The notes under the pieces: generated by a model | What the model saw: only the letters and a program-made list of their open reading frames with translations | What the model was told of the DNA's origin: nothing | Databases searched by the model: none | Part shown: in pieces, positions 40,926 to 41,463 of the stretch | How the letters are laid out: every line of letters starts with the position of its first letter | Position numbering within the stretch: position 1 is the first letter of the stretch | Position numbers and translations under genes: made by a program | NCBI RefSeq assembly: GCF_016903815.1 | Contig: NZ_CP069973.1 | Source of the DNA: Escherichia coli | GTDB lineage: Bacteria > Pseudomonadota > Gammaproteobacteria > Enterobacterales > Enterobacteriaceae | Reading direction: 5' to 3' (one strand) | DNA: 64,000 nt

Positions 40926-40930
40926 GCAAT

Positions 40931-40964
40931 AAAAAAGGCGACATGCCAATGTGTCGCCTTTTTC
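40931..40964 (+). terminator. Rho-independent terminator of acrD
   Basis: Stem aggcgaca / tgtcgcct with 8-nt loop followed by TTTTT, 10 nt after acrD stop. Confidence 0.7.
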
Positions 40965-41023
40965 AACTTTCCGATTAAGAACCTGCTCAGCGGGTTCTTG
41001 CTGTTTGTACTTTGTCTCAGGAA

Positions 41024-41083
41024 TTACTTACGAAGCATAACTTCGATAAAGTCTTTCCAGTTCCCCAGTTCACGTTCAATCAT
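41024..41083 (-). CDS. ypfM: Small protein YpfM (19 aa: MIERELGNWKDFIEVMLRK)
   Basis: ATG at 41081-41083 with GAGAGG SD; too short for the ORF track; recognised as the known 19-aa small protein. Confidence 0.7.
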   Translation of the reverse strand: MIERELGNWKDFIEVMLRK

Positions 41084-41463
41084 AACAACCTCTCTTATAA
41101 TTATGGGTATTCTACGGAAACAATATACCGTGGTGAAGCTAATTTACTCGATTGCTGCGATGACTACCTCCGGGGGACAAACCTTATGTAAATACTATGG
41201 TCCTGCGGTGATGATTTGTATGTGATACACAGCAACATTTCGAGATATTCATACGGCATCTAATACTGATTTAATTCTGGTTAAAATACAGGCAGATAAC
41301 AAGATGAATATTCTTAATGTTTACGTTAAAAATGTTTAATATTATTTAATAGTTGTTAATTTGAATACTTCGATAATGTTATATTTCCTGATAATCATTT
41401 GCAGGCAAAATGTTTTCACCCTTAAATGAGTATTTATTCTCATAAATCGAAAAAGGATTCATT

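Follow-up and report, generated by a model that had tools for sequence, protein, structure and literature searches.

The acrD-yffB junction of Escherichia coli: the 19-codon gene ypfM as a separate unit, a predicted shared terminator and an AT-rich divergent control region

The spacer between acrD and yffB of Escherichia coli was analysed as part of a 64-kb window (the whole stretch of 64,000 nucleotides, taken from contig NZ_CP069973.1). acrD ends at 40925 and the ATG of yffB lies at 41464, and the ORF and annotation coordinates agree with the spacer length of 538 bp given in the first-pass annotation of this DNA. On the identical locus, RefSeq labels the genes acrD, ypfM ('protein YpfM', WP_001386977.1), yffB (ArsC-family reductase), dapE and ypfN; the names acrD, ypfM, yffB and dapE used in the first-pass annotation were right, all of its coordinates held, and each element that it described was present. 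Of 5426 complete E. coli genomes, 5425 contain a sequence of 801 bases around the locus, most of them with at least 99% identity. The features of the spacer and its flanks are collected in Table 1. Very likely, the locus is the well-annotated acrD / ypfM / yffB-dapE junction, with ypfM as a unit of its own, a terminator common to ypfM and acrD, and an AT-rich divergent control region.

Table 1. Features in and around the acrD-yffB spacer (positions in the window)
Feature	Position	Strand	Basis
acrD CDS (RND multidrug efflux permease), convergent with ypfM	37812..40925	+	ORF list and RefSeq
Predicted bidirectional Rho-independent terminator of acrD (+) and ypfM (-)	40931..40964	both	folding, terminator scan, compensatory changes
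Second hairpin, AAGAACC...GGTTCTT, in the ypfM 3'UTR	40976..41000	both	folding, conservation profile
ypfM CDS, 19 codons + TAA, product MIERELGNWKDFIEVMLRK	41024..41083	-	translation; RefSeq WP_001386977.1; NCBIfam NF033843; conservation
Shine-Dalgarno sequence AAGAGAGG of ypfM	41089..41096	-	read from sequence; five bases before ATG
Predicted ypfM sigma-70 promoter, TTCACC-17-TAGAAT (-35 41137..41132, -10 41114..41109)	41109..41137	-	promoter scan, SELEX hexamers, conservation
Conserved block TTTAC(T/A)CGATTGCTG(C/T)GAT	41143-41163		conservation profile and alignment
Conserved block ACTATG	41194-41199		conservation profile and alignment
Conserved block TTTTATGTGA-N-GCAA(C/T)ATTT(C/T)GA(G/A)ATA	41212-41247		conservation profile and alignment
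Literature-predicted yffB promoter, TTCATA-16-TTTAAT	41248..41275	+	hexamers from PMC3946193, located in the window
AT-rich tract (24% GC): yffB upstream region, promoter, leader	41261..41460		GC profile; published SELEX
Extended -10-like TGtTATATT, candidate proximal yffB promoter	41377..41385	+	conservation
Shine-Dalgarno sequence AAGGA of yffB	41453..41457	+	read from sequence; AAAAGGATTC kept in nearly all loci
yffB CDS (ArsC-family reductase), first gene of yffB-dapE-ypfN	41464..41820	+	ORF list, RefSeq, Pfam ArsC PF03960 (79 bits)

The first-pass annotation had placed in the spacer a 19-codon minus-strand gene, ypfM, preceded by a ribosome-binding site. Translation of this strand gave MIERELGNWKDFIEVMLRK followed by a stop codon, with AAGAGAGG at 41096..41089. 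The mechanical ORF list, which has a minimum of 20 amino acids, does not contain ypfM, just as had been stated for ORF callers that apply a length threshold. Searched with the 19-amino-acid YpfM to which an X had been appended (20 residues), the NCBIfam equivalog model NF033843 (small_YpfM) was matched over profile positions 1-19 of 19 with 59.2 bits (E 2.4e-16; cut-off 33). Compared with YpfM of E. coli K-12 (NF033843, WP_001386977.1), the 19 amino acids, the position, the strand and the promoter hexamers are identical; there is no difference, and the gene is K-12 ypfM itself.

To follow ypfM beyond E. coli, we used a sample of 80 species-level Enterobacterales loci collected via YffB. A YpfM-like minus-strand ORF was present upstream of yffB in 73 of these loci, in almost all of them 70-150 nt beyond the end of acrD. 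It starts with ATG in every one of the 73 and stops at codon 20 in 71 (TAA in 46, TGA in 22 and TAG in 3), and the Shine-Dalgarno context TAAGAGAGG occupies the same position in 52. The 73 loci contain 53 distinct coding sequences that specify 22 peptide variants; the variable sites number 8, 5 and 15 at the first, second and third codon positions, and the pooled pN/pS is 0.145. In a scan of all spacer ORFs of at least 8 codons, ypfM was kept in 41 of the 42 loci aligned (mean identity 0.94); none of the other ORFs was retained in more than 10 of the 42, and these were rejected as genes. Among E. coli records, 5415 of 5425 are at least 99% identical over ypfM and its promoter. Conservation at the protein level, which had been proposed as a check on the small ORF, was in this way borne out. 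On the pattern of substitution, YpfM is judged to be a real peptide under purifying selection, and ypfM a protein-coding gene rather than a chance ORF.

The peptide has been seen directly. Intact YpfM, carrying formyl-Met, was identified by top-down mass spectrometry with 100% coverage, and DIA, PRM and an earlier quantitative study of the proteome detected it as well; low-Mn minimal medium was the only condition in which targeted PRM quantitation found YpfM in every replicate (PMC12529367).

The family extends to Yersinia nurmii (MVDVELNTWKEFIESMLRK), Dickeya oryzae and [Erwinia] mediterraneensis. At the Dickeya oryzae locus (L080, 2209-2265), which has no acrD, ypfM is flanked by a cspE-like gene and yffB; in Yersinia nurmii (L073, 901-957), it adjoins acrD, and genes for a TPR protein and a periplasmic protein intervene before yffB. 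Because ypfM is kept outside the order acrD-ypfM-yffB in these two species, it behaves as an autonomous unit. We regard YpfM as a core peptide that is strongly constrained throughout Enterobacterales.

Upstream of ypfM, the promoter scan found a sigma-70 promoter with 9 of 12 matches to the consensus, and the same hexamers are printed in the table of an RpoD genomic SELEX study (PMC3946193). Among the 73 loci, the -10 element is TAGAAT, TATAAT or TAAAAT in 63 and is located 25 nt from the ATG in 52, and the 17-bp spacing is kept in 61. The sequence between the -35 and -10 elements varies from locus to locus; variable sequence between conserved hexamers is the signature of a real promoter. Judged from the position of the hexamers, transcription of ypfM would start near 41102; the leader would then measure ~19 nt and the whole transcript ~177 nt. 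ypfM would thus form a one-gene minus-strand unit composed of the sigma-70 promoter, the ~19-nt leader with AAGAGAGG, the 19-codon ORF, a 3'UTR of about 95 nt and a Rho-independent terminator.

The corresponding transcript of Salmonella, STnc250, was described by Sittka et al. as the ypfM small mRNA; it is stable and growth-phase-dependent, and in Northern analysis it runs at ~220 nt (PMC2515195). This band exceeds the ~150-180 nt expected from the proximal promoter, so an additional start of ypfM transcription upstream is possible. A second upstream promoter present in other genera, TTCAAA-18-TAAAAT (~41214-41245, minus strand), is a plausible candidate for the source of the 220-nt band; it is weak in E. 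coli.

The hairpin that follows acrD had been described as the acrD terminator. Its calculated folding energy is -18.0 kcal/mol on the plus strand and -18.7 kcal/mol on the minus strand, none of 200 shuffled sequences folded as well, and the terminator scan agreed. An A6 run borders the G+C-rich stem on one side, a T5-6 run on the other. Across genera the stem is kept with compensatory changes (GGCGAC/GTCGCC, GGCGGC/GCCGCC and GGCGTC/GACGCC), and the loops are variable. Since the hairpin folds on both strands and is flanked by an A-run as well as a T-run, it is predicted to terminate both of the convergent genes, acrD and ypfM; its identification as a terminator stood, but its assignment to acrD exclusively had to be widened to include ypfM. 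A 705-bp IS200C element whose tnpA is frameshifted occurs in some E. coli strains (elppa9, FDAARGOS_1281) at the position equivalent to 40927-40933 of the window (locus L002, 634-1339). The element follows the stop codon of acrD and precedes the shared hairpin, so that in those strains acrD has been moved away from the terminator.

Between ypfM and yffB, the conservation profile and an alignment of 43 sequences from many enterobacterial genera revealed three conserved non-coding blocks (Table 1). A dyad-like CAAT-N7-ATTG is situated inside these blocks, just upstream of the ypfM -35 element, and TTTTATGTGAC-N6-GCAATATTTTGAAATA is also found among them. Compared by eye with the sites of CRP, Fur, Zur, MntR, ArgR, LexA, IHF and sigma-54 and with the LysR-type T-N11-A motif, the blocks gave no convincing fit. 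We propose that the blocks, upstream of the ypfM promoter, and the AT-rich tract beyond them would together make up a divergent control region.

The stretch before yffB had been noted as very AT-rich. It is indeed the 200-bp stretch of lowest GC content in the window (mean 53.7%), and between 41250 and 41450 the GC fraction is 0.19-0.27. The second-lowest 200-bp stretch of the window, at 26053-26252, has 27.5% GC. The first-pass annotation had further suggested that the tract might be curved, or might be promoter DNA of yffB-dapE bound by nucleoid proteins. Curvature was not borne out: a search of the tract for A-tracts spaced ~10-11 bp apart, one helical turn, returned only 7 short A/T tracts at irregular intervals (41273, 41283, 41328, 41358, 41407, 41413 and 41450). 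As for promoter DNA bound by nucleoid proteins, in vitro binding of RpoD holoenzyme to the divergent ypfM<>yffB spacer and an H-NS SELEX site within it have been reported (Shimada 2014, PMC3946193), and a conserved extended -10 element is present in the tract; this part of the claim agrees with the published in vitro data, with the refinement that a portion of the tract would be transcribed yffB leader.

Two positions were considered for the yffB promoter. The -10 element of the promoter predicted in the literature is poorly conserved (conservation 0.3-0.5). TGtTATATT, ~78 nt upstream of the yffB ATG, is a block common to Escherichia, Citrobacter, Enterobacter, Leclercia and Lelliottia, and is by this comparison the better conserved candidate for the yffB promoter. 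Transcription from it would start near 41392 and produce a leader of ~72 nt. In Salmonella, the start site of yffB has been mapped 97 nt upstream of the AUG, and a fusion of the region -97 to +75 is repressed by the sRNA SdsR (PMC5137417). We infer that TGtTATATT of E. coli and the mapped start of Salmonella represent the same promoter, the leaders of 72 and 97 nt being compatible given the indels. The mapped Salmonella leader also implies that the tract is transcribed as leader in its proximal part and consists of upstream DNA in its distal part. In this arrangement, the in vitro binding of RNA polymerase and H-NS would fall on the tract, which would hold the extended -10 promoter and the yffB leader, the latter being a target of SdsR in Salmonella. 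Weaker reports include a 2.6-fold increase of yffB in a Salmonella fur mutant (PMC3212961) and a MarA ChIP peak in the Salmonella region whose match to the motif is weak (PMC10268841). TGATAATCATT at 41389-41399 is similar to a Fur-box core, with 13 of 19 positions matching GATAATGATAATCATTATC when compared by eye; it is poorly conserved, and it overlaps the predicted yffB start site.

Alternatively, the AT-rich tract could be a drifting or horizontally replaced spacer that has no specific regulatory element and is bound by H-NS merely through its AT-richness. Across genera, 202 to more than 1500 bp separate ypfM from yffB, and most of the tract is unalignable between genera; beyond Escherichia and Citrobacter, conservation of its sequence and length is poor. 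Among E. coli genomes the tract shows more polymorphism than ypfM does (717 records at 95-99% identity with the 801-bp query, compared with 10 for the ypfM segment), and it serves as a marker for strain typing and source tracking (PMC11267920). Matches to the H-NS nucleation motif in the tract are weak as well (2 sites with 2 mismatches, against 0.26 expected). However, the tract contains conserved islands (TGtTATATT, the yffB Shine-Dalgarno sequence and a block in the leader), RpoD holoenzyme binds the spacer in vitro (PMC3946193), and in Salmonella yffB has a mapped start and an sRNA-responsive leader (PMC5137417). We therefore consider a spacer devoid of regulatory elements unlikely, and retain a control region for yffB-dapE as the preferred reading. 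It resembles the H-NS-bound type-A spacers (Shimada 2014, PMC3946193) in lying between a divergent gene pair, in its GC minimum and in the in vitro binding of RpoD and H-NS, but the genes on its flanks are housekeeping genes of the core genome, not horizontally acquired ones, and the binding is known in vitro.

A second hairpin, AAGAACC...GGTTCTT, had been reported next to the terminator. It was present, and its position could be specified as the 3'UTR of ypfM. The calculated energies are -14.5 kcal/mol on the plus strand (z -2.9) and -9.6 kcal/mol on the minus strand (z -1.7). The sequence was found only in Escherichia, and its conservation across the 42 aligned loci is low. At the same position of the 3'UTR, other genera have small hairpins of their own (L005-L082), such as ATCCT/AGGAT in Citrobacter and GTGTGA/TCACAC in Enterobacter, with further ones in Leclercia and others; the position of a small hairpin is conserved across genera, and the sequences are unrelated.

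The same region matches an RNA family. The Rfam model RF01409 (STnc250, 'Hfq binding RNA') aligned to 40925-41044 on the minus strand over its full length (1-94) with 37.5 bits (E 1.7e-5), under the gathering score of 42. The shortfall is explained by a 37-nt stretch in E. coli that replaces 13 nt of the model, that is, by an insertion of ~24 nt that contains the second hairpin; apart from this hairpin insertion, STnc250 of Salmonella occupies the same acrD/yffB spacer on the same strand. The model spans the last six codons of ypfM, the 3'UTR and the terminator. The 3' end of E. coli ypfM is thus homologous to STnc250, although it scores below the threshold, and the Rfam entry is the 3' part of the ypfM mRNA. 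In Salmonella, STnc250 was recovered by Hfq co-immunoprecipitation with 24 versus 6 reads, a 4-fold enrichment (PMC2515195).

These observations raise the question of whether ypfM RNA has a dual function, specifying YpfM and in addition acting through its 3' module, either as an Hfq-dependent regulatory RNA or sponge or by limiting convergent transcription of acrD. Such a function would be in line with the modest Hfq enrichment of a stable short transcript (PMC2515195), with the sRNA-like layout of the 3'UTR (an internal hairpin, a linker and a terminator with a U-tail) and with the retention by every genus of a hairpin at the same position despite unrelated sequences. On the other hand, the 3'UTR from stop codon to terminator is poorly conserved, which implies that there is no conserved seed region in the RNA; the 4-fold enrichment is weak relative to genuine Hfq-dependent sRNAs, which reach at least 20-fold in the same table (PMC2515195); no target is known; and hairpins beside terminators are commonplace. 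A dual-function RNA therefore appears very unlikely. That the locus is a non-coding Hfq-binding small RNA in which the 19-codon ORF is incidental is hardly credible: the match to RF01409 over the whole model, the Hfq enrichment in Salmonella and a transcript that folds better than shuffles (z -2.85) would suit such an RNA, but the score stays below gathering, the model takes in only the last six codons and the 3'UTR, Sittka et al. themselves call STnc250 a small mRNA (PMC2515195), and the codon-position substitution pattern with its low pN/pS, the conserved start and stop, the interchangeable stop codons and the intact peptide in mass spectrometry (PMC12529367) largely refute it.

With ypfM taken as a protein-coding gene, we asked what its sequence suggests about the peptide. 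YpfM had no match in Pfam or in a sequence search of the PDB, and we know of no structure, partner or phenotype on record. It has four acidic and four basic residues, no transmembrane segment and a mean hydrophobicity of -0.12. Calculated for an alpha-helix, its hydrophobic moment is 0.55 per residue, a value reached by 314 of 10000 shuffles (p ~0.03). Residues M1, E5, W9, K10, F12, I13, M16, L17 and R18 are invariant, and positions 4, 8, 11 and 15 are variable; the conserved hydrophobic residues are I2, L6, W9, F12/I13, M16 and L17. The variable face is directed ~160 degrees away from the hydrophobic face, with a weak variability moment (p ~0.08). Taken together, the pattern would fit one amphipathic alpha-helix; the argument is statistical and modest.

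Characterised bacterial microproteins usually act by binding a larger protein. Since most of them do so, the most likely mode for YpfM, a stably accumulating soluble peptide, is that its helix docks with the hydrophobic face on a larger protein. One could go further and suppose that ypfM serves two purposes, its amphipathic peptide modulating a larger protein and its Hfq-associated 3'UTR acting as a regulatory RNA, and, separately, that the blocks in 41143-41247 form the operator of a regulator common to ypfM and yffB-dapE; we regard this extended scheme as quite unlikely. Under it, the target of YpfM might possibly be tied to the AcrD pump, to YffB and DapE (thiol and metal-dependent enzymes) or to metal limitation, the last because targeted PRM quantitation found YpfM only in the low-Mn medium.

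In its general properties, ypfM is comparable to the genes of AcrZ, MgtS, MntS and CydX: a very short ORF with a strong Shine-Dalgarno sequence, its own promoter and terminator and conservation among enterobacteria, overlooked by ORF callers and seen by tagging or mass spectrometry. Most characterised E. coli microproteins, however, are single-pass membrane helices that act on transporters or sensors, whereas YpfM is charged and amphipathic and is without a transmembrane segment. ypfM was reportedly predicted in 2001.

The earlier description of the spacer is correct and not new, its essentials having already been annotated or published. As a discovery it carries little weight: ypfM is a RefSeq gene with a dedicated NCBIfam model, its product has been detected by mass spectrometry, and the promoters and the H-NS binding have been tabulated. 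The case confirms that a 19-codon gene overlooked by ORF callers with a length threshold is within reach of a reader working without tools.

One locus in the comparison has a different content upstream of yffB. In Enterobacter sp. CC120223-11 (L054, 1-2200), the place of acrD and ypfM is taken by two ORFs whose leaders are of the double-glycine type (MPNIKDLNFDEIALVSGG...) and by an ORF for a multi-pass membrane protein. This arrangement resembles a microcin or bacteriocin cluster that includes an immunity gene.
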